Below are positions 35,154-51,089 of a stretch of 64,000 nucleotides of DNA, in pieces. This stretch comes from a virus. Numbering within the stretch: position 1 is the first letter of the stretch; every line of letters begins with the position of its first letter. The notes under the pieces are model-generated. The model ran no database searches and was not told the origin of the DNA. It was given only the letters and a program-made list of their open reading frames with translations. The DNA is taken from the IMG/VR virus record IMGVR_UViG_3300044922_000409, positions 35,738-99,737 of that record; one strand, given 5' to 3'. A program made the position numbers and the translations under genes.

Positions 35154-36242
35154 TTATTGACCGCTAGCGGCAGTAATATATTTGCCATATTTACCGTGGA
35201 ACTCATCAAAACAACTAATTTCTTCTGGATCAAGCGGTAATTTGTATGAGCATAATGCAAGTTTAGTACCCATAATTGCAATTTCTGTTTCGAAATTGTT
35301 CATCATAAATAAGAAATAATTATTAACTTGCTCGTTCCAATTAGGCACCTTTTTTCTAGCAGATTCTTTTAATTCGTAACATAAACTAATTGTTAACGAG
35401 TACATTGCTGAAATCTCTTTTGTTTCACAAGTAGTTACTTTACCATTTAATACTGCAGTCGGATTAGGTAGTTTACTTGAAAACTGTCTGTGAGCCATAA
35501 ATTTAATAGCTAAGCCTTCACCAATTGAACCAGCAACTAAATCTGATAATGTATCTGCGTCAGTATCGTTATCGTTAATTAACTCACTTACAAAGCTCCA
35601 TGATCTAGGTGTAGCAAATGCACGTGAACTTGATTTAGAATCAAAAGTATAAAGATCGCTTTTGCATGAAGTTAAAAATCCAATTACATCTGGATGAACT
35701 GCATTGTCAGTTGCCCAATCAAAGTAATCATCCCAATCAACTGCCATTTCTAAGTGAATAAATCTATTAGCTAATGGCGCAGGCATACGATATGTAACAC
35801 CTTTGTCTGTTTCTCTGTTACCAGCAGCAACAATAACAACGTTATCAGGTAACTCGTATTGTCCTACACGACGATTTAAAATAAGCTGATAAGCAGCAGC
35901 CTGTACACTCGGAGCAGCAGAATTCATCTCATCTAAAAACAAAATAACAGTTTTAAATTGTGATGCAAACGCATTGCTTGGTAATTCTGACGGTGGAGCC
36001 CATACCATTGTTTGGTCTACTGAATCAAAGTACGGAATACCTTTAATATCAGTTGGTTCCCATAAACTTAATCGAACATCGATAACATGTGCATCTAATT
36101 CACTACCTAGCTGTTTAATAATATCTGATTTACCAATGCCTGGAGGTCCCCATAAAAAGATTGGACGTTTGCTGCTGAATGCTTTGCGTAAAGATTTTTT
36201 AGCTGATTTTGGTCCAACTGTACGTGATACGATGTTGCTCAT
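35154..36242 (-). CDS. MoxR-like AAA+ ATPase
   Basis: Walker A GPPGIGKS, Walker B LFLDE, AAGN, PLANRF and TPRSW. Adjacent to the vWA gene. Confidence 0.9.
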   Translation of the reverse strand: MSNIVSRTVGPKSAKKSLRKAFSSKRPIFLWGPPGIGKSDIIKQLGSELDAHVIDVRLSLWEPTDIKGIPYFDSVDQTMVWAPPSELPSNAFASQFKTVILFLDEMNSAAPSVQAAAYQLILNRRVGQYELPDNVVIVAAGNRETDKGVTYRMPAPLANRFIHLEMAVDWDDYFDWATDNAVHPDVIGFLTSCKSDLYTFDSKSSSRAFATPRSWSFVSELINDNDTDADTLSDLVAGSIGEGLAIKFMAHRQFSSKLPNPTAVLNGKVTTCETKEISAMYSLTISLCYELKESARKKVPNWNEQVNNYFLFMMNNFETEIAIMGTKLALCSYKLPLDPEEISCFDEFHGKYGKYITAASGQ

Positions 36243-37970: not shown

Positions 37971-38957
37971 TTATGTTGTTGGGTAGTTTGCTTGAAACGG
38001 TTCTGCAAATGGTTGAATATTATCAATCATTCTTCGCATATCGTATGATTGACAAAACTTAATCATACGTGAACCGACTTGTGTAATACATTTTGGTTTA
38101 GAATTAACGCTAATTGTTTCGTTAATGATTGCGCGTACATCTTCCGGTTGCTGTGTTAGGTCGATCAACACTCGATTACGATTATAGTCATCTATCACAC
38201 GATGTTCTACACCATTATGATCAGTCCATCGTTGTAATAAGAAATTATTCCACGCATATCCTTGCGTCGCACGATCTTCAAATGCTTCAGTTAATCCGAT
38301 CTTCTTTTTAGTACCTTTAGTTCTAGCACCGGGATATGCTGAAAACACGTTATCACTAGTATCACCTCTTATGCATTTTTCGAATAACATCCATTCTGGA
38401 TCAAATGGCATTTTATTTTCGCCTGTTTTTTTATCTTTAACGGGTTTACCTTTTGCATCAAAATATCCTTCATGCGTAATATGATGGTCTGCTACACCGT
38501 TATATTGACTAACCGTAGGGCTAATCAATTGTTGAAAGTCAGTGTCTGTACTAACAATAACATGTGTAGCATCTGGATGTGCTTGAATAAATCCTGCAAT
38601 TAAATCATCTGCTTCTAATCGTGAATGTTGTAATACAGTACAGTTAGTTTTTTCAGTAATAAAGGTTGCAAAATCTCCATAGGCTTCCCAGAATAGTTTG
38701 TCATCTTCTTGTTCTTTAACAGTCATAGCAGCACGAGTTACTGCTCGGTTGCGTTTATATGGTTCGTAAAAATCTTTACGCCAACTCCGACCTTCTAAAC
38801 AAAAGATTACGTGTTCACCGTTAAAATCATTCCATGCTTTTTTAACACTATTAAATGTAATGTGTAACGCCATTCCGAGTTTTAAATCGGATGTGCCTTG
38901 AACTGAATGTCGTGCGCGATAAAACAAGTTTGATAAATCGACTAAAATAAATGCCAT
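37971..38957 (-). CDS. rnh: 5'-3' exonuclease / T4 RNase H-like flap endonuclease
   Basis: LVD, SWRK..Y..YK.NR, EADD, STDTDFQQL and GDTSDNV FEN motifs. Confidence 0.9.
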   Translation of the reverse strand: MAFILVDLSNLFYRARHSVQGTSDLKLGMALHITFNSVKKAWNDFNGEHVIFCLEGRSWRKDFYEPYKRNRAVTRAAMTVKEQEDDKLFWEAYGDFATFITEKTNCTVLQHSRLEADDLIAGFIQAHPDATHVIVSTDTDFQQLISPTVSQYNGVADHHITHEGYFDAKGKPVKDKKTGENKMPFDPEWMLFEKCIRGDTSDNVFSAYPGARTKGTKKKIGLTEAFEDRATQGYAWNNFLLQRWTDHNGVEHRVIDDYNRNRVLIDLTQQPEDVRAIINETISVNSKPKCITQVGSRMIKFCQSYDMRRMIDNIQPFAEPFQANYPTT

Positions 38958-39135: not shown

Positions 39136-39573
39136 CTATTGTGTTTTATTAATTTTAAGAAATCCAAAATCTTGATCAGATACGTCAATTCCTTCGGCTG
39201 CAGCAGCATTGTAACAGATATCTCTATACCAACGACCTACAATTTCATCTTCGGGATCACCTTCGTAACCGTATCCATCTTGTTTTAATTTTTCAACCCA
39301 AAACTCATTCCAGTCAAGTTCAAAAAAACCATTTCTAACATTTTGTTTATTAACCTTAAATCCGATCACATCGACCCACGGTTCTTTCTTTAATGTAGCA
39401 ATTTCTTTTGGAGTAAGAGGCGTTTGAACAACTTCTTCTTTAACTTTAGGTTGTCTTACTTTACGTTTTTTAATAGCTTGTTGTTTAGATAATTGTGCTT
39501 CTTTTAATTGCTGTTGCAATGCCAACTCATCATTACGATCACCGAATAATTTTTTTATAATTTTTTCAAACAT
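39136..39573 (-). CDS. Hypothetical protein
   Basis: Start placed at MFEKII because of the TAATG overlap with the queE stop. Confidence 0.75.
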   Translation of the reverse strand: MFEKIIKKLFGDRNDELALQQQLKEAQLSKQQAIKKRKVRQPKVKEEVVQTPLTPKEIATLKKEPWVDVIGFKVNKQNVRNGFFELDWNEFWVEKLKQDGYGYEGDPEDEIVGRWYRDICYNAAAAEGIDVSDQDFGFLKINKTQ

Positions 39574-40412
39574 TATGTTCCCCAACCGTTGCCAAATAGT
39601 GGAAGATGTAGCCTATCACTATATCGCAATCCATATTTTAATGCAAGTTCTGCTACTGCTTTGTTGTTTAAATGATAAACATCTTCAACACCGCCAACTG
39701 GCATTAAATAAACATCACCTCTAAAACCAGCTGCTCTATACCATTCTAATGCTTCTAGAGCTTCAATAACATCTTCTTTAGTTGCAACTACAAATTTTAA
39801 AAATGAACCATAACTTGATAGTTGGTACTCAGTTACAATTTCAGGACAAATTGCCTTATCTTTTAGTTCTCCGCTTACACTTAGCTTAGGACTAATTGAA
39901 AATGTTACTTGATATCGTCTTTTTCCAAATATGTAATCTTCTAATTCTTCTGATAATACTTGTGTGCCGTTAGTTTCAAACGTAATGTTTTTTAAGTCTT
40001 CTAACTTTGGATGATTTAACAATTCTGGATATATCTTTTGCCATCCAGGTAACAATGGTTCACCTCCTGTAATTACTAAGTGTACATTACCCCATCTTTT
40101 ATTAGGTAGCAGATTAATCATTTTATCTGCAATTTCATCGATAGTCATTATAGGACTTAACTGTTTAAATTTTGGATGCCAGCTTGCATAACTGTCACAC
40201 CCGGTAGTTACTAATGGTAGTTCATCATATGAATGATATTGTATACCATTATTAGCAATTGCATCTGCTTGTACACTTAGTTCACCTTTAGGCATACCAA
40301 ACCCTCTACAAGAAAAATTGCACCCAAACGTTCTAAGGAACACACTTGGCACTCCCATAAATCTACCCTCACCTTGTAATGAGTAAAATATTTCTGATAC
40401 TTTAAGTGTCAT
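39573..40412 (-). CDS. queE: 7-carboxy-7-deazaguanine synthase (radical SAM)
   Basis: SEIFYSLQGEG..G.PSVFLRTFGCN, CDS, ITGGEPL, ETNGT, SPKL and RLH. Confidence 0.9.
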   Translation of the reverse strand: MTLKVSEIFYSLQGEGRFMGVPSVFLRTFGCNFSCRGFGMPKGELSVQADAIANNGIQYHSYDELPLVTTGCDSYASWHPKFKQLSPIMTIDEIADKMINLLPNKRWGNVHLVITGGEPLLPGWQKIYPELLNHPKLEDLKNITFETNGTQVLSEELEDYIFGKRRYQVTFSISPKLSVSGELKDKAICPEIVTEYQLSSYGSFLKFVVATKEDVIEALEALEWYRAAGFRGDVYLMPVGGVEDVYHLNNKAVAELALKYGLRYSDRLHLPLFGNGWGT

Positions 40413-40860: not shown

Positions 40861-41532
40861 TTATTTGTTTACAATACTCATAAATTCTGCACGAGTAGTT
40901 GGATCGTTTTTAAATGCACCACCTAACTTACTAGTAATAGTAGTGCTACCTGTGTCTTCTACACCTCTTGCGGCAACACAATAATGTTTTGCATCGATAA
41001 CTACTGCAATATTATCAGTATCTAAGATGTATTCTAATGCGTGGAATACTTGTTCTGTTAATCTTTCTTGTACTTGTGGACGTTTTGAAAAGTATTCAAC
41101 TACGCGGTTAATTTTGCTTAGACCAAGTACAACGTCGTTTGGAATATAACCAACTGTTGCAAATCCATCAATTACTACAAAATGATGTTCGCAATTACTT
41201 TGCACGTTAATGTTGCGTTCAATTAACATTTCATTGTACCCCATTTTATTTTGTATAGTAGTACACTTTGGAAATGCGTCATAATCAAGGCCCCAAAATA
41301 TTTCGTTAACGAACATTTTTGCAACTCGTTTAGGAGTGTCTGCTAAACTGTCATCTAATAAGTCTAACCCTAATGTTACCATAATATCATAAAACTTATC
41401 CTGAATGATATTAATTTTTTCTGATGTTGTTAATATTTTTTCAGTCACTGGTGTTTCAACACCTAAACTTACTAAATGATTGTGTATTGCTAAACCTAAT
41501 GCTGGATCTGTTTTTAATTTATTAAAGCTCAT
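40861..41532 (-). CDS. folE: GTP cyclohydrolase I
   Basis: TPKRVAKM, CEHH, GLSKINR, RPQVQERLT and HYCV..RGV. Confidence 0.95.
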   Translation of the reverse strand: MSFNKLKTDPALGLAIHNHLVSLGVETPVTEKILTTSEKINIIQDKFYDIMVTLGLDLLDDSLADTPKRVAKMFVNEIFWGLDYDAFPKCTTIQNKMGYNEMLIERNINVQSNCEHHFVVIDGFATVGYIPNDVVLGLSKINRVVEYFSKRPQVQERLTEQVFHALEYILDTDNIAVVIDAKHYCVAARGVEDTGSTTITSKLGGAFKNDPTTRAEFMSIVNK

Positions 41533-41741: not shown

Positions 41742-42057
41742 TGTTTCCCTCCGATCTTGCTATTTCTAAAAACATTTTATATTTTTCATATGCTGCGTTA
41801 ACAGTTGGATTAGAATCTCTAACATACATATCTTCATAATGTTTTTTATTCCATTCTTCACATTTTTCAGCTTTGTCGATCAACTTTATAAAATCTTTCT
41901 CGTTTAATTTAACAGTTAAAGACCTCGTAACGTTTGCTCGTTCGCTTGGAATTGATGCCTTTGACCAATCTATCGAATAAGTGTTATCTGCAGAATAATA
42001 TTGTTCAATGTCTATGCTTCGTATACCGTATTTCTGTGTTATTTCGGATAGTTCCAT
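41725..42057 (-). CDS. Hypothetical protein
   Basis: Start placed at MELSE because of the TAATG overlap with the PRTase stop. Confidence 0.7.
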   Translation of the reverse strand: MELSEITQKYGIRSIDIEQYYSADNTYSIDWSKASIPSERANVTRSLTVKLNEKDFIKLIDKAEKCEEWNKKHYEDMYVRDSNPTVNAAYEKYKMFLEIARSEGNNDRFN

Positions 42058-42587
42058 TACTTTTTCCAGTAGTTTTCCCAAGGAAAGTCAATCCATATAG
42101 GATCTTCTCGTTTGTCAAATTCTTCTGCGCAATAATCAACATGCGCGTTACTTGCAGCATTATCAAATATTACAGCAAATCTTACATTCCTGTGCCACAC
42201 ATCATGATCCCATCGTATATCATTTGGTAAACACAATGATTTCCAATCTTCTTTAATCCAATCAAGTGTTGCACCTGAGTCATTAATATCATCAACAATT
42301 AGAATGTTTTTAGCTAGACCAACACTTGCTAATTCATCATCAGTGACTCCAAATGCATCACACGCCATCCATGCATTGTGTTCATTATCATCCGGATGAT
42401 CACGTAAGCTAACGTGTAATGTTAACATTTTAACACCTAGGTATTGGCTTAGTAAGTTCGCGGGGATAAGTCCCCCGCGTGTAATGCCTACAATATAATC
42501 TGGTTTCCACTCGTCTTTTTGTATTTGACGTGCAATTTCCAATGCTGCACCTTCTAATTGTTTCCAACTGTATTTTACTACTTTCAT
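42057..42587 (-). CDS. Purine (xanthine/guanine-type) phosphoribosyltransferase
   Basis: GITRGGLIPA, PRPP-binding ILIVDDINDSGATL, and C-terminal WIDFPWE. Confidence 0.88.
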   Translation of the reverse strand: MKVVKYSWKQLEGAALEIARQIQKDEWKPDYIVGITRGGLIPANLLSQYLGVKMLTLHVSLRDHPDDNEHNAWMACDAFGVTDDELASVGLAKNILIVDDINDSGATLDWIKEDWKSLCLPNDIRWDHDVWHRNVRFAVIFDNAASNAHVDYCAEEFDKREDPIWIDFPWENYWKK

Positions 42588-43036
42588 TCGTCGTCCTTTG
42601 GAAGTATGCTGTCTTCGTAACAGATTGTGTAAATTGATTTTAAATTCTCATATGCTTTGTCTAGGCCAGGGTAATCATTGCATAGTTTTCTGAATGCATT
42701 CCATTCAGGAAAGTTATCTTCAAATGGTTTACCATATGCAGCCCAACTAGAAGTAGACCAAGTATTTCCTCCTATTCCGTTATATGCGTAATAGTTACTT
42801 GTTAAATTAGTAGAATTAAATCCGGTTATAGTATTATGGCCATACATGCCATTACTTCCAGTGATAGTAATTGTATCACTCGCTGCTGTTCCACACATAA
42901 CATTTGACGCTGTATATGCTGATAATGTACTGGCATCAAACGCAGGTATACTGTAACGTGTTGGATCCCCATCCATAGTAAATGTAATAGTATCAGATCC
43001 GGTTGATGTAGTAATAGTATCATTTAAAGTTGTCAT
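42584..43036 (-). CDS. Hypothetical protein (Thr/Ser-rich N-terminus)
   Basis: Likely start at MTTLND. Confidence 0.7.
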   Translation of the reverse strand: MTTLNDTITTSTGSDTITFTMDGDPTRYSIPAFDASTLSAYTASNVMCGTAASDTITITGSNGMYGHNTITGFNSTNLTSNYYAYNGIGGNTWSTSSWAAYGKPFEDNFPEWNAFRKLCNDYPGLDKAYENLKSIYTICYEDSILPKDDE

Positions 43037-44120
43037 ATAATACCCTTGCATTAAAAAATTCTTTTGTTAAGTAATCTGCTTGTTTTTTAATATGCAACGC
43101 ATATTCGTCGTATTTTTCTATATAATTAATAATTTGATTACATAAATCAAAACTGTGTGCCTCGTAATCTGCAAAACATTCAGTCCACTGTGATGGATAT
43201 TTAAAATGATACATATACATTTCTTTATAGCTAAGTCTGTTAGGCACCATTGGTATAGCTCCAAGTAATGCACCTTCATAACAACTAATGCCTAGTGTTT
43301 CTTGTAAATTAGCACTAAACACAATCTTTGCTTCACTTAACAATTTATGATATTCGTCTTTAGTAAGTGTTTCTTCTTGGCATATAACAAAGTCATATTG
43401 TGGTAATTGATCTTTTAATGCTTTAAAAATATCAACTTGTTTTTCTGATGCAATTCTGTGCGGAAACACGATTAAATCACGTTTCTCTGCATTTAAATAT
43501 GGTGTAAGTTCGTCGGCTAAATATTCCATTGGCCATCCAGTGCGAACAATTTTACCATCGTCGTACCTTTCATTCCAATCTTCGTCAAACCACGGATTTT
43601 CACTAATCATGCCGTTGTTTAATAGTTGCTCCATAAACATTCTCACATGAAATTCTGTTGCAAAATAATTATGATCAAATGATGCATAATAACTTTTTTC
43701 AGCAAGTTTAACCCAACCGTGATCAATCCCACCTAAAAAATCATGTTTGTCATAACTGCCAGCATGCCACAGTCCGTGAAATGTCCAATTTAATCTCATC
43801 AAATCTTTAATATATTTTAAATTTATAATTGCTGGATTCCAAGCATCTGTAAATAAGAAATGATCATTAGTTGTTGATTTATCATAATTTTTTAAAAATC
43901 CAACAAGTTGCGATCCCTTCCATACGTTAGTGTCTATAAAGTTTAAGAATGCACCGGGTGTTACATCTGATGATTGTTGATCACCAGTAATTTGAATAAT
44001 GTTAAAGTTATCGCCAAGTTGTTTTTTAAGTTGTTTAGGTATATATTCAAACCATTGACTAGTATAGCGAGTGTCAAGTGGTTCAAGTGCAAAAATCCAA
44101 ATAGTAGGTTTTATTTTCAA
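43020..44120 (-). CDS. GT-B fold glycosyltransferase (GT4-like)
   Basis: FPHRIASEK and QETLGISCYE (Ex7E) motifs. AGGAG RBS with a TTG start. Confidence 0.8.
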   Translation of the reverse strand: MKIKPTIWIFALEPLDTRYTSQWFEYIPKQLKKQLGDNFNIIQITGDQQSSDVTPGAFLNFIDTNVWKGSQLVGFLKNYDKSTTNDHFLFTDAWNPAIINLKYIKDLMRLNWTFHGLWHAGSYDKHDFLGGIDHGWVKLAEKSYYASFDHNYFATEFHVRMFMEQLLNNGMISENPWFDEDWNERYDDGKIVRTGWPMEYLADELTPYLNAEKRDLIVFPHRIASEKQVDIFKALKDQLPQYDFVICQEETLTKDEYHKLLSEAKIVFSANLQETLGISCYEGALLGAIPMVPNRLSYKEMYMYHFKYPSQWTECFADYEAHSFDLCNQIINYIEKYDEYALHIKKQADYLTKEFFNARVLYDNFK

Positions 44121-44136
44121 AATAAACTCCTGTTAT

Positions 44137-44159
44137 GAAAGCTCCAAAAGGAGCTTTCG
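44137..44159 (-). terminator. Stem-loop (GAAAGCTCC-TTTT-GGAGCTTTC), possible terminator or processing site
   Basis: 9-bp perfect inverted repeat just upstream of the glycosyltransferase RBS, with a weak U-tract. Confidence 0.5.
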
Positions 44160-44175
44160 TGGTTAATATTAAATG

Positions 44176-44430
44176 TTATGATTTTTTATAATTGTTAGTT
44201 TTTGGTCTAACATTATTGGGCCATGGTTTATTGCCCTGGTATGGTTTTCTAGGACGCTTACTTGCCATATACGCACCATACGATTTAGTATCTTTGCGAT
44301 ACAAATCTGCTGGATCAAATTTACGTAATTCAATTCTACAAAAGTCACGAAATGCTTCAAGATCTTCAAAGATTTTAACAACATCTGGACGACTTTCAAA
44401 GTATGAGAATGTTTTGTAATTTTTAGCCAT
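44176..44430 (-). CDS. Small basic hypothetical protein
   Basis: 84-aa ORF downstream of TATAAATA. Confidence 0.75.
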   Translation of the reverse strand: MAKNYKTFSYFESRPDVVKIFEDLEAFRDFCRIELRKFDPADLYRKDTKSYGAYMASKRPRKPYQGNKPWPNNVRPKTNNYKKS

Positions 44431-44528
44431 TTTATTTTCTTCCGTTTTATAATAAAGTTATGGTAGTATATACTAACAACCTCTGTTAGTGTATACTGTA
44501 AATTGTACATCTGGTTTAATACTAGGTT

Positions 44529-44536
44529 TATTTATA
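44529..44536 (-). promoter_or_regulatory. T4 late promoter consensus TATAAATA
   Basis: Exact octamer on the minus strand in an intergenic region. Confidence 0.6.
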
Positions 44537-44560
44537 CATGAGTTTTACATGTGATTAGTT

Positions 44561-44920
44561 TTAGTTGTATTCGGTATATGATCCATTTTCACCATCTTCA
44601 GAAACTTCAATCCACACTTCTTTATGTGGGTATTCATCTTTTATGTTCCAGTATAAATCATTGCTTATCATTTCACAACTTTTATTATCTAATGATAATG
44701 TTGAAGTAATGTACAATGATTCTAACCATCTTTTAAATTGTATAAACTCTACATCTCTGTCATCATGTGTAACTTCAAGCCATACTTTAAAATGAAATAT
44801 GTGTCTATGCGGGTGTCCTAAAAACGATACATCTGCTAAGTTAGGATCAGTTAGTGCTGCAGGATAACAATGGATTCCTTCTTTCTTAAAAGTGACCCAG
44901 ATCATTTGTTTATTAATCAT
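44561..44920 (-). CDS. QueD-like T-fold protein, probable DpdL-type enzyme
   Basis: EGIH, LGHPHRHIF (LxxxHRHxF), SCEM and VSEDGENG. Lacks the canonical QueD CxxxHGH motif. Confidence 0.65.
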   Translation of the reverse strand: MINKQMIWVTFKKEGIHCYPAALTDPNLADVSFLGHPHRHIFHFKVWLEVTHDDRDVEFIQFKRWLESLYITSTLSLDNKSCEMISNDLYWNIKDEYPHKEVWIEVSEDGENGSYTEYN

Positions 44921-45441
44921 TTAAGTACCTTGTCGTTATTATAGTTAAACCAGTTAGTGAACTTCTTGTGATCTTGTAGATCGTGCAAGCTATGTGTCCA
45001 CACGCCGGGGTTAGTTGCGTTAAATGTAGTGTCGTCAATCTTAACCATTGTATTATAACTCCAATCCTTAATATTTGCAACCGGAATTCTAATTTGTGGT
45101 ATAAAATTATTATACTTGCATAAATTAGTATTTGTGTTAAAATCGATTACTGCTGTAAATGGAATATCTAATGAACACAGTTTTCCTGTTTTTAAAAAGT
45201 GCGCAATAGTGTTATTCCAGTTGAGCCATGCACCTGGTGTATCTGGATTAAAACTATGGTTTGCACCAAAGAAGATATGTGTAATATCCTCTGTAGTATC
45301 TAACCGGTAATGGATTGCTTCTGTAGTTTGAATACCAACAATAAATAATGTTTTTAAACCATATGCTGGAGTATGCTCTACTTCATCTCCAACAAAAAAT
45401 TTAGCAGTGTTAGTAGTTGTGTTGTTGTATGTTCTATTCAT
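44917..45441 (-). CDS. Hypothetical protein in the deazaguanine cluster
   Basis: 174-aa ORF overlapping both the dpdA-like and QueD-like genes. Confidence 0.75.
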   Translation of the reverse strand: MNRTYNNTTTNTAKFFVGDEVEHTPAYGLKTLFIVGIQTTEAIHYRLDTTEDITHIFFGANHSFNPDTPGAWLNWNNTIAHFLKTGKLCSLDIPFTAVIDFNTNTNLCKYNNFIPQIRIPVANIKDWSYNTMVKIDDTTFNATNPGVWTHSLHDLQDHKKFTNWFNYNNDKVLK

Positions 45442-47065
45442 CTTTAATGCTATCTTCTAAGTTAGATAAGTTAAGTTCTTCATCAACGAAATCATCGTCA
45501 TCGTCATCAAATGACCATAATTCATTAACCTTTGTATCAGGATTGATTGTTTTTTTACCAGTATTCCCGCGTGTACCAGGTATTGCTATCCACAGTTTGT
45601 TATATGTTTTAATAATTGCCAATGCGTCAACTAAATTATCAACTGCAAAGATTGAATCAATAACATCTCTAACATATACGTGTTTAAATTTTTCATCCAC
45701 TAACATATTAGGCAAAATACCGTTATCGTATGCTCGATTTGCCTGTTGTACAGCATCCAAGTGACTCCATACGTTGTGCCCCATTAATATAGCATAACTA
45801 AAACTATCCCAACTAGTTCTACCTACTTTATTAACTTTATTAGCATCACCCATTGTAATCCAATATTTAGGATCATTTAAGTATAATGGATCTGAAAATA
45901 ATAATGCATGATCAATGTTATCATTATCAACTTCTGTCCAGTTAGGAACACCTTGACTGTATATACATATATCTTTAATTGGTACTTGATCGATTAACGG
46001 ACTTGGATTAAACACTTTAAAGATCTTATCTTGAATAACTGCATCTTTAAATAGTCGAGTATCAGTTGAATATTTTTTATCATCAGCACTTGGCACCATT
46101 CGATACACCCATTTAGATCTATCTTCAACTTCGGTAGTAATATAGACTTGACCATTTGCAGTAGCTAAAAATGGACTAGCACAATCGTAACTAATAGTAA
46201 AGTTTGGATTATGATATTTACGTACTGCCCGTTGAATGTCTGTTAATAAACATGCCCATTCTAATTTACTTGTTCCTAAAAAATGCATCCAATCTTGATG
46301 CCCTTGTTCTAGTAATCCGTCAAATCGCAATGTAACTAATCGTCTAAGAACTAGGTCAGCATCACACATGTTTTGTCCACCCATTGCCCAACCATTAAAC
46401 GCCTTGTCACCGTAGATAGTAGGATCGCAATATTTCTTCATACGTTGGTACCAATCTTCTGCATCAGTGTGTGTTTCGCCTTGCAATACGTTTAAGAATT
46501 TGCATTTACCAGAGCGATTATTAACAAAATAATCATTATTAATATAAGTACCTTGTACTGCATCCATGTAATCATTAATACCTGTTGCTGCTTGCCCTGC
46601 AGGGCTACGTGCAACCCACGCAGGAATATCAAGACACATACCGTAATCCATTAACTCGTCCATCCATCGTAATACTTGTTCACGTTTCTTTTGTGCTTTA
46701 GGACAAGCAGGATCTTTCCAATCAGCCGGCCACACACCTTTACCAATCTGGAAACCACCTGAGTCACCTAGTACCCAACTTGTAGTTCTGTCTCTGTTAC
46801 GAAACATGTCTTCGCTTTCGTCAAACTTATCTAAATCTAAGTTTGCGTGTCCTGCTGAATATAAGCACCATTTGTAGTAGAACTCTCCTTTTTCAGGTTC
46901 TAAATAGTTAAGTCCTTCTACTCCAGCTTTAAATGATGCAGGAATACGTGAAGGTTCAACATAATTACCGTAACGTTGTTTTCCAATAAACGTCGAGTAA
47001 AAACCCGACGTTGCTGGTAGGAAAACAGCATAATCATTCTGCGTTGCTGTTAAGTTCCGATTCAT
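45434..47065 (-). CDS. dpdA: TGT-fold guanine transglycosylase, DpdA-like
   Basis: DSGGFQ, LDIP, VLQG, GWAMGG, HFLG and YDCASP TGT motifs. Clustered with folE and queE next to the replication genes. Confidence 0.75.
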   Translation of the reverse strand: MNRNLTATQNDYAVFLPATSGFYSTFIGKQRYGNYVEPSRIPASFKAGVEGLNYLEPEKGEFYYKWCLYSAGHANLDLDKFDESEDMFRNRDRTTSWVLGDSGGFQIGKGVWPADWKDPACPKAQKKREQVLRWMDELMDYGMCLDIPAWVARSPAGQAATGINDYMDAVQGTYINNDYFVNNRSGKCKFLNVLQGETHTDAEDWYQRMKKYCDPTIYGDKAFNGWAMGGQNMCDADLVLRRLVTLRFDGLLEQGHQDWMHFLGTSKLEWACLLTDIQRAVRKYHNPNFTISYDCASPFLATANGQVYITTEVEDRSKWVYRMVPSADDKKYSTDTRLFKDAVIQDKIFKVFNPSPLIDQVPIKDICIYSQGVPNWTEVDNDNIDHALLFSDPLYLNDPKYWITMGDANKVNKVGRTSWDSFSYAILMGHNVWSHLDAVQQANRAYDNGILPNMLVDEKFKHVYVRDVIDSIFAVDNLVDALAIIKTYNKLWIAIPGTRGNTGKKTINPDTKVNELWSFDDDDDDFVDEELNLSNLEDSIKDE

Positions 47066-47450
47066 CTTCTTCCTGTTTTGGGGTTAATAAATTACTAAGT
47101 AAAGTTTTAGTAACTTGTAAATTAGTTTCTACATCTGTAATTCTATTAGCTGCGCTTACAAACTGCGGACTTGCAGTAACATGTCCGACTATATGCGAAT
47201 TAAGAGTGTAATTTGTATATGGGTTTCGATTATACTCTTCAAGTGTGGTTAATCTTGATTCAAGTCCTTGCACACGTTGTTTTATGTATTCGTAATCAAC
47301 ATAAAACTGTTCAAATGGTCCTGGCATAGCATAAGATGGCATATCTAATTGCGCTAACATTGTTACTTTATCAAGAGATGACTTAACACTTTCATTTTGA
47401 TTAACATACACAACGTCTAATAATTTTAATGCTTTTCTAATATCTATCAT
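47034..47450 (-). CDS. Hypothetical coiled-coil protein
   Basis: 138-aa ORF with a TAATG overlap to the clamp gene. Confidence 0.7.
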   Translation of the reverse strand: MIDIRKALKLLDVVYVNQNESVKSSLDKVTMLAQLDMPSYAMPGPFEQFYVDYEYIKQRVQGLESRLTTLEEYNRNPYTNYTLNSHIVGHVTASPQFVSAANRITDVETNLQVTKTLLSNLLTPKQEEDESELNSNAE

Positions 47451-48187
47451 TATTTTGTGTGTGCAGGTAATGTATAAGTGTATACTGCATTTCCGCTATC
47501 AACGATAATTTGTAACGAACCTTGATCAGATACTCGCATCTTAATATCACCGTTTAAATTTAAAATGCTTAGTACATGTGTAATTGGCCAAGACCATGTA
47601 TTTTTTAAATTAGCAGTGATTCCTGGATGAAATACGTATGATCCTGCATGTGTGCTAGCATCACCAAATCTAAATACTAAGTCATTATTAACAGTAGCTA
47701 ATTGAAATACAGTTTCTTCAGTATGAGCAGCAGCCTGATGTTTTAATCGTTGTATACTTACAATAGATGGACTAAATTCAATTTCGTATGTAATTTCTAC
47801 TTTAAGTTTAGGTCTTCTAACTTTGGCATTAATGATTTCTTGATTCATAAATCGATAATCATTTTCATAATCGCCAGTTTCATTAGAAAAGTGAAGTCCG
47901 GTTGGTAATTGTTCATCATCTCTAGTTTCGTAAACAACTTTAATATTTGCATCTTTTTTATATTCTGGACATTTAAGATGAAGATCTAATTTATTTAAGT
48001 TAGGCATTCCAAAAATACTTTCGCCTAATTCAGGAACAGGAGCATGTGTAGTTGCTAATAGCATTACTGATCTATCTTCAGCAATGGATTCGATAATAGC
48101 ATTGTTTGAGGTCGCAGTTACTTTAACTAATGGTAAAATGCTTAATGTATGTGTATGTGCTACTAAATCTTGTAAAAATGTTTTCAT
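47450..48187 (-). CDS. DNA polymerase sliding clamp (gp45-like)
   Basis: 245-aa alpha/beta protein directly downstream of the polymerase. Start moved to MKTFLQD because it has an AGGAGA RBS and a promoter occupies the annotated extension. Confidence 0.65.
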   Translation of the reverse strand: MKTFLQDLVAHTHTLSILPLVKVTATSNNAIIESIAEDRSVMLLATTHAPVPELGESIFGMPNLNKLDLHLKCPEYKKDANIKVVYETRDDEQLPTGLHFSNETGDYENDYRFMNQEIINAKVRRPKLKVEITYEIEFSPSIVSIQRLKHQAAAHTEETVFQLATVNNDLVFRFGDASTHAGSYVFHPGITANLKNTWSWPITHVLSILNLNGDIKMRVSDQGSLQIIVDSGNAVYTYTLPAHTK

Positions 48188-48209
48188 ATAATGTCTCCTA
48201 GTTGTGTAT

Positions 48210-48238
48210 ATTATATTATAGTTGTGTTGTTTTGTCAA
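48210..48238 (-). promoter_or_regulatory. sigma70-type promoter TTGACA-17-TATAAT
   Basis: Perfect consensus upstream of the clamp/dpdA genes. Confidence 0.75.
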
Positions 48239-48246
48239 GCGTTTCG

Positions 48247-50910
48247 TTAATCAAAATCAAATAAGCTATTAAATGTATTTCTATCTGATGTATCAACTAA
48301 TTTCCAATTTAAGATACCGATTAAGTTATCTAGTTTGTTATCAATAATAGTATCTTCCATTTCGTTGTGATCGAATGGCAAGTCTTTAAACCATTGTGGC
48401 AATCGTAATTCGTCTACTGGATATGCAACACTTGTAAAGCCTAACGGGTTTTGTTTAAGTTTGCATACAATAACTTTTGCACCATCTGTAACACTCATTG
48501 AGTATTTGTCACCGTACATACGTTTTAATGTATTCCAATTTAAACTTGCTCTAACATGACCTGGCATATTAACTTTCCCATGCTTAGTTTCTTTATCTAA
48601 GTATGTTGTAATATTATTTGCACGTTTTGGTGAACCTTTTTCCCAGCCCGGCCTAGCTTTAAATACTAATCTAAATTTGGTAATATAATCTAATACATTT
48701 GTTTCAGTATCACCTGATAATACCATTTTTAATACAGTAGCTAAAAAGTCTTGAATGAATTCTGGCGTATCACTACGTTTCAAATCTAGTCCCATAACTT
48801 TAATTTCACCAATGCTGCCATTTGTGTCTTTACGTTTACCTTCTTTATCATATACAAGCACTGCATATCGTTTTTTAGTAATAAACAATGATTTGCTACC
48901 AATAATCTCACGACCTGCTTTAATAACATCACCGCGTGTCTTTGGACAATGGAATGCATCTAACATAAACTGTTGGAATGTTCCATTAACTTGATCACCA
49001 ATTTGATCGTACAACTGAATAACCGTTTCTCTAGTCCATGGTAAACTTCCGTTATCAATATCTTTCTGCAATATTTTGTATGCTGAAAAATAACATGAGT
49101 CAGTATCACCATATATAATAGATTTTCCTGTATGATTATACTCACCGGTAATAATTTCATTTACTGTTGCAGCCATATGTTTCGCAATTTGCCTACCAGT
49201 TAACGTAGTTGATTGTCCAATCCGTTTGTCAAAGAATCTACACCCTGGGTTAAGAATTGCACCATACAAACTATTTAGGTTAATCTTCTTAACTAGCTGA
49301 CGTTTATCCCAGTACTCTTCTTCAATCTTATTACCTGCATTGATTGCTTCTTTTAGCTTTTTCTGCATATCTTTACGTTCTGCATACCAACGTTTAAGTA
49401 ATCCAGGAATAATACCTTCAGTTTCATACGAAAAGATAGTACCATTTGCTGAAATAACCCACGGTTGATTACTTTGGAATATTAATCGATAAACTTCGGC
49501 TGCACTTAGTACATCAGTATCACCATTTTCCCAATCAACTATAATGTCGGTACCTATTTCTTCATTCATTACAGACGTATACTCGAGTGTACCAAACAAT
49601 CCCTCCCATGCTGCAGCAAATGACTTTCCTTTTGCTAGTTGCATAGAAATATATTCATCAGTTGCTATAGGTCTTAACTGCCCTACAATAGTTTCCGGAC
49701 CCATATTTAATGCTCGAATAGCACTTGGATATAGTGAATTAATATCTAGTGAACCTATCCAGTCGTGTATACCTTCTTTAGGATATGCAACATATGCTCC
49801 AGCAGCTTGAATTGGTTCTGCTTTCCCTTTTCTATTAGGTACAACAAATCCTCGATGATGTGCTTCATTAATGATAGCTTGCTCTGTTACTGCGACTGCA
49901 CCCATTGTAGTCTGTAATAATACAGTATTTTCATGAGCAAGAGTGTTAGCTAAGTCAATAAATTTTAATTTCTTATCAAGTCTGTCTAACAGCATAGTAT
50001 CTTGTCTGTTGTACTCAATAAATGTTTTAAAGTCGTTATTATATAATTGATCAAGCGTGCCTTCGTATTGGGTTTTACGTTCCCCTAACTCATATTCTGC
50101 AATTGCATCTAATCGAAAGCTGTGTCGTTCTTCATACGTATATTTTCTGTATAATTCTAAACTATCTAAATGCACACGACCAACAAAATCGTATGTAACG
50201 GCTTGTTTTCCATACTTTTCATATTCGCGACGTTTAGGTAATTGATTAAACAAGCAGAATCGACGAGTGTCATCTTTTGATAACACTTTAGTAACACGAT
50301 TCACTGTATACGGAATATCAAATCCTTCACTATTCCATCCGCTAATGATATCAGCATCATCTAATAACGTAAGAAATGTATCTAACATATCTGCTTCATT
50401 ATCAAATAGAATAGTATTGGGGAATTCTTTAACTTGTTCTTTAGCTTGCTCTATAGTTAATGTTTTAGGAGGAACTGCTAGACATATAAGGGTTTCTAGC
50501 CATTGTAGGTATACTGCAATAGCTGTAATAGGCATAAACGCATCATCTGGTGATGCATATCCTCGTTCCGGATCAAAATCAACCTCGATATCATAAAACG
50601 CTATATTAAGTTTAGGTGCATCGTGATTGAGATAGTTATCTGACAAGCATTTAAAAATTGGATTAATATCTGCTTCAAATAACTTTTGGTTACCATGTAT
50701 TGCTAACTCTTTTCGGAACTCTTTTGTGTTGTTACAAACAACTTTTGATACAGGATCACTGTAAATTGATTGATATTTCCCTTTTGGATCGGTATAATAT
50801 AATGTAGGTTTAACGGGGATATCTTTATATTCTCGTTCACCTTTTGAATTTCTTTCTACAAGTTTAATAACATCGTTTTCACGATCAAAATATGCATCAA
50901 CATAACTCAT
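48247..50910 (-). CDS. Family B DNA polymerase (gp43-like)
   Basis: Exonuclease motifs DIE, WNSEGFD and YNRQD. Polymerase motifs DINSLYPS, KINLNSLYG, YGDTDS and KKRY. Confidence 0.97.
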   Translation of the reverse strand: MSYVDAYFDRENDVIKLVERNSKGEREYKDIPVKPTLYYTDPKGKYQSIYSDPVSKVVCNNTKEFRKELAIHGNQKLFEADINPIFKCLSDNYLNHDAPKLNIAFYDIEVDFDPERGYASPDDAFMPITAIAVYLQWLETLICLAVPPKTLTIEQAKEQVKEFPNTILFDNEADMLDTFLTLLDDADIISGWNSEGFDIPYTVNRVTKVLSKDDTRRFCLFNQLPKRREYEKYGKQAVTYDFVGRVHLDSLELYRKYTYEERHSFRLDAIAEYELGERKTQYEGTLDQLYNNDFKTFIEYNRQDTMLLDRLDKKLKFIDLANTLAHENTVLLQTTMGAVAVTEQAIINEAHHRGFVVPNRKGKAEPIQAAGAYVAYPKEGIHDWIGSLDINSLYPSAIRALNMGPETIVGQLRPIATDEYISMQLAKGKSFAAAWEGLFGTLEYTSVMNEEIGTDIIVDWENGDTDVLSAAEVYRLIFQSNQPWVISANGTIFSYETEGIIPGLLKRWYAERKDMQKKLKEAINAGNKIEEEYWDKRQLVKKINLNSLYGAILNPGCRFFDKRIGQSTTLTGRQIAKHMAATVNEIITGEYNHTGKSIIYGDTDSCYFSAYKILQKDIDNGSLPWTRETVIQLYDQIGDQVNGTFQQFMLDAFHCPKTRGDVIKAGREIIGSKSLFITKKRYAVLVYDKEGKRKDTNGSIGEIKVMGLDLKRSDTPEFIQDFLATVLKMVLSGDTETNVLDYITKFRLVFKARPGWEKGSPKRANNITTYLDKETKHGKVNMPGHVRASLNWNTLKRMYGDKYSMSVTDGAKVIVCKLKQNPLGFTSVAYPVDELRLPQWFKDLPFDHNEMEDTIIDNKLDNLIGILNWKLVDTSDRNTFNSLFDFD

Positions 50911-51089
50911 GCTGCACCGCCGTTGCGATCGCGATTAGTTGCATGATCATTAATCCATTCCATAAATGCTTCTTCTTCACTACGTAGTGTTGCGACATCT
51001 TCATTAATGTGTTTTTCTATACCACATTCATTTCTTTCAACACACACGTCAGGATTATGACATGTTTCGCATATTGTTAAGTTTTCCAT
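50907..51089 (-). CDS. Small Cys-rich hypothetical protein (60 aa)
   Basis: Likely start MENLTICETCHNPDVCVERNECG. Its stop overlaps the polymerase ATG. Confidence 0.55.
   Translation of the reverse strand: MENLTICETCHNPDVCVERNECGIEKHINEDVATLRSEEEAFMEWINDHATNRDRNGGAA

Follow-up and report, generated by a model that had tools for sequence, protein, structure and literature searches.

A polymerase-like tail peptide that may tether a DpdA-like enzyme of jumbo phages to the replication clamp

Introduction

Phage 7-deazaguanine modifications defeat restriction and CRISPR, and in bacteria the inserting enzyme, DpdA, needs the DpdB ATPase. How does such an enzyme find every target guanine, and why do the phage enzymes need no DpdB-type ATPase? 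To our knowledge, neither is known. The question is raised afresh by a 64,000-nucleotide stretch of DNA (hereafter the window; positions 35,738 to 99,737 of IMG/VR record IMGVR_UViG_3300044922_000409), which is part of a 99.7-kb record from an uncultured jumbo phage with a CheckV completeness of 27%. Its minus strand carries a module consisting of a DNA polymerase gene, a putative sigma-70-type promoter, a sliding clamp gene, a small open reading frame (ORF138) and then the gene of a DpdA-like enzyme, whose C-terminal tail contains a peptide resembling the end of the polymerase. We consider it likely that this divergent base-exchange enzyme, which has the fold of a tRNA-guanine transglycosylase (TGT), docks on the clamp by its polymerase-like peptide and that DNA modification is thereby coupled to replication.

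There is a precedent for recognizing clamp clients in this way. In T4 and RB69 the C-terminal tail of the polymerase gp43 binds the gp45 clamp, and a flexible loop of T4 ligase, EPEGLDFLFD, was first spotted because it resembles the gp43 tail EKASLDFLFG; binding of this loop to gp45 was proven by size-exclusion chromatography, isothermal titration calorimetry and a crystal structure, with a Kd of ~11 μM (PMC6212786). As in that system, a flexible segment contains a short hydrophobic peptide that resembles the tail of the cognate polymerase, the client motif can be internal, the polymerase is of the gp43 type and a cognate clamp of PCNA/gp45 fold is encoded. Unlike the T4 and RB69 clients, the candidate here is a base-exchange hypermodification enzyme rather than a replication or transcription factor, and its binding is modeled. 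The motif also differs, being N-x-L-[FW]-x-F or F-x-N-L-F-[DE] instead of LDFLF, and the window clamp, unlike that of T4, has no sequence-level match to gp45 or PCNA.

A polymerase-like peptide in the enzyme tail

The C-terminus of the polymerase reads ...DRNTFNSLFDFD, and its last nine residues, TFNSLFDFD, are encoded at 48250..48276 on the minus strand, next to the stop codon at 48247-48249. The DpdA-like enzyme (543 amino acids; 45434..47065, minus strand) has the C-terminus ...INPDTKVNELWSFDDDDDDFVDEELNLSNLEDSIKDE, and its last 45 residues are RGNTGKKTINPDTKVNELWSFDDDDDDFVDEELNLSNLEDSIKDE. In the ORF translation these contain a putative clamp-interaction peptide, K512-V-N-E-L-W-S-F-D520 (45506..45532, minus strand). 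The initial annotation of this DNA had pointed out that both tails fit N-x-L-[FW]-x-F-D, and translation of the minus strand confirms NSLFDFD in the polymerase and NELWSFD in the enzyme. It had also described the enzyme as ending in this motif over 45434-45530. That span does cover motif and tail, but "ending in" is loose wording, since the motif lies inside the tail, with another conserved, acidic module behind it. The 23 residues between motif and C-terminus form an acidic tail (D521-E543 and the stop codon; 45434..45505, minus strand) in which comparison of homologs picks out ...L-x-N-L-E-D-S-I-K-D-E. KVNELWSFD does not match the canonical PCNA-interacting protein (PIP) box, Q-x-x-[LIVM]-x-x-[FY]-[FY], as it has no Gln and another hydrophobic spacing, and it may work like a PIP box without being one.

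How much weight can such a short likeness bear? A loose regular expression for the motif finds four sites among the non-overlapping ORFs of the 99.7-kb contig (32.5 k residues), where shuffled sequences give 2.5, so that in this one contig the motif is no rarer than expected by chance. When only the last 45 residues of each of 268 ORFs are considered, it occurs in the polymerase, the enzyme and one junk-looking ORF. The resemblance in one genome is not significant, so the case must be made from relatives, in which the motif is conserved and changes place.

Conservation and relocation of the motif

The enzyme family is large: it falls into more than 7,651 clusters when grouped at 90% identity and into 1,189 at 50% identity (E <= 1e-3), none of them named; the 120 closest clusters and 56 IMG/VR loci were inspected closely. 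The motif is kept in almost all of this set, in a tail that is otherwise variable apart from two islands. The first is F-x-[NE]-[LF]-[FWY]-[DE]-x, with the wider form [FV]-x-[NE]-[LF]-[FWY]-[DEST]-[FVEL] across homologs, and in most relatives the peptide reads F-x-N-L-F-[DE]. The second, [DE]F[TS]xEE....L..LE..[IV]K, lies ~20 residues after the motif and appears as LSNLEDSIKDE in the window enzyme. This acidic module is found in homologs with an internal motif (P0127, P0130, P0131, P0134, P0141 and that of Pseudomonas aeruginosa phage PA5oct), is kept to ~37% identity and is also present in 50%-identity representatives, but it is missing wherever the polymerase-like motif is the extreme C-terminus.

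Such a terminal motif defines a subclade of at least eight independent contigs (L014, L030, L041, L046, L049, L051, L053 and L055). Here the acidic tail is lost, the internal copy of the motif is degraded (e.g., MANVHIEFE) and the enzymes end ...P[IV]LN[DE]SLFE[FLV], for example ...PILNESLFEF, while their own polymerase ends ...TFNSLFEF. The codons used in the two genes differ (Ser AGT versus TCA, Leu TTA versus CTA), so the likeness is kept at the protein level and a recent DNA copy of the end of the polymerase gene into the enzyme gene is ruled out.

More distant pairs show the same correspondence in other dialects. In PA5oct (enzyme EST35_0316 at L001:5998-7620, 37% identical to that of the window) the polymerase ends ...FDSLFGW and the enzyme has ...FNSLFDVD followed by an acidic tail, and in Vibrio phage 2.275.O (33% identity) the polymerase ends ...NNTDLFDW and the enzyme ...NNNDLFGW. 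The ten loci of the P0142 clade (~35% identity) pair a polymerase ending ...TTFDDLFDF with enzymes ending ...VNNLFDFS, ...ASNLFDFD or ...TFDSLFD, and L066 (31% identity) pairs ...KAMKLFNY with ...KAKSLFEF. The pairing of polymerase and enzyme peptides recurs in at least six lineages, and on the polymerase side all 50+ related proteins retain a C-terminus of the pattern ...TF[ND]xLF[DE]F(D). Across the homologs the motif is kept down to ~30% identity and is terminal in several lineages, taking on the form of the tail of their own polymerase, which bears out the suggestion that the two peptides belong together. Chance resemblance is ruled out by this conservation and relocation.

A position-specific scoring matrix (PSSM) built solely from polymerase tails gives the same picture when scored on 105 full-length 50%-identity representatives of the enzyme family: 25 tails exceed the 99th percentile of body windows (~1 expected) and 40 exceed the 95th (5 expected). 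Polymerases and enzymes from the same genome share 3.42 identities in seven positions against 3.07 ± 0.12 in shuffled pairs, and 9 of 5000 permutations reach the observed value, in a test over 38 pairs that is not phylogeny-corrected and in which the peptide window is wrongly chosen for ~7 of the 38. A search for related loci with P0182 found none. Judged by sequence comparison, the combination of a conserved core, a disordered variable segment and a movable position is the signature expected of a short linear docking motif.

Could the tail instead act within or between enzyme molecules, as an autoinhibitory DNA mimic, a lid or an oligomerization element, its likeness to the polymerase being convergent low-complexity sequence? 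TGT enzymes are dimers, the tail is strongly acidic with a second conserved module that is unrelated to the polymerase tail, and the motif is short and at chance level within one genome, all of which would suit such a role. Lineages without the acidic tail nevertheless keep or re-create the polymerase-like peptide at the C-terminus, its details track the cognate polymerase (the terminal W in 2.275.O, KAxxLF in L066), and the tail is unpacked in the structure model, with a predicted local distance difference test (pLDDT) score below 50. We regard this explanation as very improbable.

The clamp and a model of its complex with the tail

The proposed partner is a protein of 245 amino acids (47450..48187, minus strand; phrog_12062) that has no sequence match in Pfam or the PDB, and none to gp45 or PCNA at the sequence level; its homolog in phage PAC2 is annotated as PCNA. 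The designation of 47450-48187 as a clamp was well founded, since a model from a 23-sequence alignment (pLDDT 90.9; predicted template modeling score, pTM, 0.88) is a two-domain PCNA-type sliding-clamp subunit that matches yeast and human PCNA in Foldseek (E 5.6e-11, TM 0.6-0.7).

The clamp was modeled with residues 494-543 of the enzyme tail alongside three controls. The complex scores 0.84 against 0.46 for the best control and 0.00 when the clamp is replaced; the mark used for this score is reached by 58 of 80 solved complexes and by 2 of 110 mismatched pairs. Agreement of contacts among the runs is at least 61%, and the pLDDT of the partner at least 52. In the modeled interface, tail residues 505-521 face clamp residues 38-42, 124-132, 222-224 and 240-245, of which 124-132 form the interdomain connecting loop (R-P-K-L-K) and 240-245 the clamp C-terminus. 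L516 and W517 make the lowest-error contacts and sit in the canonical PIP pocket, while K512/V513 and F519-D521 also touch the clamp; the second acidic module lies outside the interface. Clamp positions at the interface have a mean column identity of 0.85 versus 0.77 elsewhere, and D38-R39-S40, K127, G223 and P241-A242 are invariant. Modeling of clamp and tail peptide, which had been put forward with the initial annotation, thus places the motif where a PIP box would lie, and the predicted docking supports binding of the enzyme tail to the clamp. All checks of the annotation's proposal of a transglycosylase that may ride on the clamp which were run here, on motif conservation, clamp fold and complex model, speak for that proposal.

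The comparative data show a shared peptide and not its partner, and the peptide could in principle dock on another replisome hub, such as the phage single-stranded DNA-binding protein (SSB), the helicase or the clamp loader, which would then recruit both polymerase and transglycosylase. Acidic, aromatic-ended tails mediate SSB-type interactions, and in one tail architecture (architecture A) acidic sequence surrounds the motif. Three observations favor the clamp over such a hub: the polymerase is of the RB69/T4 gp43 type, a family whose C-terminal tail binds the clamp (PMC6212786), the clamp gene always lies between or beside the polymerase and enzyme genes, and L516/W517 are modeled in the canonical PIP pocket with a score that vanishes once the clamp is exchanged. 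We therefore regard another hub as unlikely. The gene order polymerase, clamp, zero to two small ORFs, enzyme is found in all 56 + 11 viral loci, in PA5oct and in 2.275.O, the exception being Sinorhizobium phage Phosso.

Identity of the enzyme

What does the putative passenger do? The 543-residue enzyme has no sequence match in Pfam (E <= 0.01), PHROG, NCBIfam or the PDB, phmmer and profile searches included, and PF01702, the Pfam model of TGT, gave nothing at E <= 1 when run against all six frames of the contig. Its AlphaFold model (pLDDT 76, pTM 0.78) has a folded catalytic body at ~1-495, a disordered tail at 502-543 and a short helix at 509-516 over the motif. The label "DpdA-like" is right at the level of the fold, a TGT-type (β/α)8 barrel: the model matches the TGTs of Z. 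mobilis, mouse and T. maritima in Foldseek (E ~1e-7, probability 1.00) and superimposes on 2ash with Z 19.5 and a root-mean-square deviation of 4.7 Å over 313 residues (VIA). Among viral models (BFVD) it matches TGT/DpdA proteins of Achromobacter phage Motura, Vibrio phage nt-1 and mycobacteriophages, and weakly DpdA3 of Cellulophaga phage phiST (E 1.3e-4). D101-S-G-G-F-Q106, D146 and D294-C295 are invariant in 24 sequences (alignment A1); judging by motif, D101, D146 and D294 are the putative equivalents of TGT Asp102 in DSGGxQ, Asp156 and the nucleophile Asp280 in xDC.

The sole sequence-level link to TGT is an hhalign probability of 94% to a "TGT domain-containing" protein of Vibrio phage GR7B. 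That protein has a Lys-rich C-terminal tail with an internal NKTLFGKEEED; no gp43-type polymerase or clamp for comparison was found in the GR7B genome. To phiST DpdA3 (CGPG_00065) the hhalign probability is 1.9% (alignment A1), and this value, together with lengths of 543 and 259 amino acids, rules out membership of the DpdA3 (phiST/CP220) type. A tblastn search of 50,697 phage records found no DpdA3-bearing phage. Clamp docking would not be a general property of DpdA3, because the phiST protein has no polymerase-like tail and is unrelated at the profile level. By sequence the window enzyme looks like a new DpdA-like subfamily distinct from DpdA1-4.

The surroundings of the gene point to deazaguanine chemistry. 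A DpdL homolog (a QueD-like T-fold protein; 44561..44920, minus strand) is 33% identical (E 3e-17) to CGPG_00067 of Cellulophaga phage phiST, the protein named DpdL and predicted to be a CDG (7-carboxy-7-deazaguanine) decarboxylase (PMC10516641). GTP cyclohydrolase I (FolE; Pfam PF01227, E 6e-60) is encoded at 40861..41532 and a QueE-like radical-SAM enzyme at 39573..40412 (Pfam Radical_SAM E 4e-8; NCBIfam QueE E ~1e-12, below its cut-offs), both on the minus strand. All three genes lie within 6 kb downstream of the enzyme gene in the same orientation. The 99.7-kb contig yielded neither QueC nor a canonical QueD. Comparable genes accompany the homologs: QueF, QueC, an amidotransferase and FolE follow that of Vibrio phage 2.275.O, and QueE is near that of PA5oct. 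PA5oct DNA resists cleavage at several G-containing restriction sites, from which the authors infer modified G while naming no transglycosylase (PMC12191111), and this phage has been listed with a system for deazaguanine synthesis and incorporation (Iyer et al., PMC7824862). Because the pathway genes are co-located and PA5oct has modified G, a DNA 7-deazaguanine transglycosylase is the best reading of the enzyme, with DNA as its presumed substrate.

A clamp-docked enzyme of other chemistry, either a TGT-fold DNA glycosylase or base-excision enzyme or a tRNA enzyme that borrows the clamp, would be compatible with the missing Pfam TGT and DpdA matches and the negligible profile relation to DpdA3, and a fold alone does not settle chemistry. 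The invariant DSGGFQ and D-C motifs, the co-location of deazaguanine genes in three lineages, the phage TGT/DpdA neighbors among viral models and the modified G of PA5oct all speak for base exchange, and other chemistry appears quite improbable.

Two side features of the pathway block may be recorded: a weak glycosyltransferase-like ORF of 366 amino acids (43020-44120, minus strand) and a phosphoribosyltransferase (42057-42587, minus strand). The gene set of the block resembles the phiST route to 2'-deoxy-7-deazaguanine.

Other carriers of the peptide

If the peptide directs proteins to the clamp, how many carry it? No further client with a polymerase-type tail was found in the 99.7-kb contig or in three relatives that are 96-100% complete, where the exact tail occurs only at the polymerase; one extra DNA match in G001 is not at an ORF end. 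The ending LF[DGE]W occurs in only three annotated proteins of the 349-kb genome of Vibrio phage 2.275.O, namely the polymerase, the enzyme and NVP2275O_204 (L084:2214-2438), a Zn-ribbon-like protein of 74 amino acids with the C-terminus ...NKQLMLSSLFEW (...QLMLSSLFEW). The last recalls T4 gp33 and is a candidate for a third client of the clamp. As far as these sequences indicate, very few proteins bear the peptide.

Proposed mechanism

How, then, might the enzyme reach its target guanines? The clamp trimer would be loaded at primer termini and would remain on the new duplex DNA. By analogy with gp43 and T4 ligase on gp45, the enzyme tail would enter the same clamp pocket as the polymerase, inserting its Leu and the aromatic residue into a hydrophobic pocket that is predicted to lie under the interdomain connecting loop, beside the clamp C-terminus; the acidic residues after the motif would face the basic loop R124-P-K-L-K129. 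With three pockets per trimer, a tool-belt arrangement would be possible, and the catalytic barrel, attached by a long disordered linker, could contact the DNA running through the ring. Moving along with the clamp, the enzyme would swap G for the deazaguanine base made by the products of the FolE, QueE and DpdL genes. The exchange would take place during or just behind replication, before host nucleases meet unmodified phage DNA.

A bolder version is possible but doubtful: the clamp would replace the DpdB ATPase, the enzyme would represent a sixth DpdA-like subfamily that scans processively and achieves near-complete co-replicative replacement of G, and the acidic module would be a separate switch. 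Such a switch might be a DNA-mimic autoinhibitor that comes free once the clamp is bound, or it might serve a further replisome protein as hand-off site. Deazaguanine modification in these abundant jumbo phages would, on this version, be in effect coupled to replication and not just post-replicative.

Several observations weigh against clamp docking by the transglycosylase. Besides the chance-level frequency of the motif within the contig, the window carries a divergent instance of it, with W for F and V for F (the W517/S518 variant), and the polymerase-tail PSSM does not choose this motif in the window enzyme but FDDDDDD. The more distant representatives of the family have no motif. In Phosso (L003:5971-7620, L065) the enzyme gene is 175 kb from polymerase and clamp, adjoining primase and DnaB genes, and the enzyme ends merely ...KIVEGLF where its polymerase ends ...FNDLFTF. 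Many PCNA-PIP complexes have been solved, and the high score of the complex model may for that reason reflect memory of, or likeness to, those structures; self-made alignments were used as well. Binding of the polymerase tail to the window clamp is assumed from T4 and RB69. Lastly, the enzyme matches no TGT or DpdA model at the sequence level, and DNA rather than tRNA as its substrate is what we infer from its genomic context. A 241-residue "virion structural protein" encoded upstream of the Phosso enzyme is distinct from the clamp, whose gene lies at 148968-149705 beside the polymerase.

Relation to known systems

Eukaryotic DNMT1 and UNG2 are recruited to PCNA via a PIP box. The arrangement proposed here would resemble theirs in tethering a DNA-modifying enzyme to a sliding clamp such that new DNA is processed just behind the fork, but it differs in its chemistry (theirs being methyl transfer and uracil excision), in a peptide that does not match the canonical PIP box and in belonging to a phage rather than a cell. 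With the phage DpdA1-4 and bacterial bDpdA/DpdB systems (PMC6884629, PMC10516641, PMC10164549) the window enzyme shares the TGT fold, the FolE-, QueE- and DpdL-type genes alongside and a predicted reaction that replaces guanine in DNA by a 7-deazaguanine. Unlike DpdA3 it has ~540 residues, twice the size, and matches neither the Pfam TGT model nor a phiST DpdA3 profile; it carries a clamp-type tail that phiST DpdA3 does not, and in contrast to bacterial DpdA it has no DpdB partner. DpdA1-4 have been described and the modification called post-replicative, with no targeting mechanism given (Cui et al., 2023), and our literature search found no paper linking DpdA to a sliding clamp. Both clamp-docking peptides and DpdA enzymes were known before; what is new is the two together, along with the unnamed 540-residue subfamily.

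Were the proposal true, the replication clamp would deliver the transglycosylase to new DNA and slide it along, a testable answer to the problem of target finding. The T4-type clamp tool-belt would gain a new kind of client, an enzyme of base-exchange hypermodification, and phages would have a counterpart of DNMT1/PCNA. This large family has no Pfam model and includes the enzyme of PA5oct; since this P. aeruginosa phage is cultivable and its DNA is reported to contain modified G, a test is feasible now.

Gene order and neighboring genes

The order polymerase, clamp, ORF138 and DpdA-like gene, with a promoter in front of the clamp, had been read correctly from the start. The polymerase gene (48247..50910, minus strand) encodes a family-B enzyme of 887 amino acids and T4/RB69 gp43 type (Pfam DNA_pol_B and exo1; phrog_262; phmmer E 1.9e-63 to RB69 gp43, 1clq). 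The 59-nt spacer between it and the clamp gene holds a 12/12 match to the sigma-70-type consensus, TTGACA-17-TATAAT (48210..48238, minus strand), which is a putative promoter by consensus match only, then the ribosome-binding site TAGGAG and the clamp ATG at 48187. The ORF list offers a TTG at 48238 as an alternative clamp start, but this TTG is the -35 box itself.

ORF138 (47034..47450, minus strand) encodes a small protein between clamp and enzyme and overlaps the start of the enzyme gene by 32 nt. Like ORF174 and the enzyme, it has no family in Pfam, PHROGs or NCBIfam. Its homologs are confined to the closest clade (L004-L012, L035), so it does not belong to the conserved module. A megablast search of 44000-51000 against phage records matched nothing.

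The polymerase gene of the window is uninterrupted, while in several relatives it is split. In PA5oct (L001:1-4834) a Hef-like homing endonuclease gene stands between the polymerase halves, and in L066:4955-9154 and L069:1024-5096 the first polymerase part ends in sequence unrelated to polymerase. T4 RNase H is a proposed binder of gp45. In the window a 5'-3' exonuclease of FEN/RNase H type (37971-38957, minus strand; Pfam 5_3_exonuc_N, E 5e-18) closes the block, and it has no polymerase-like tail.

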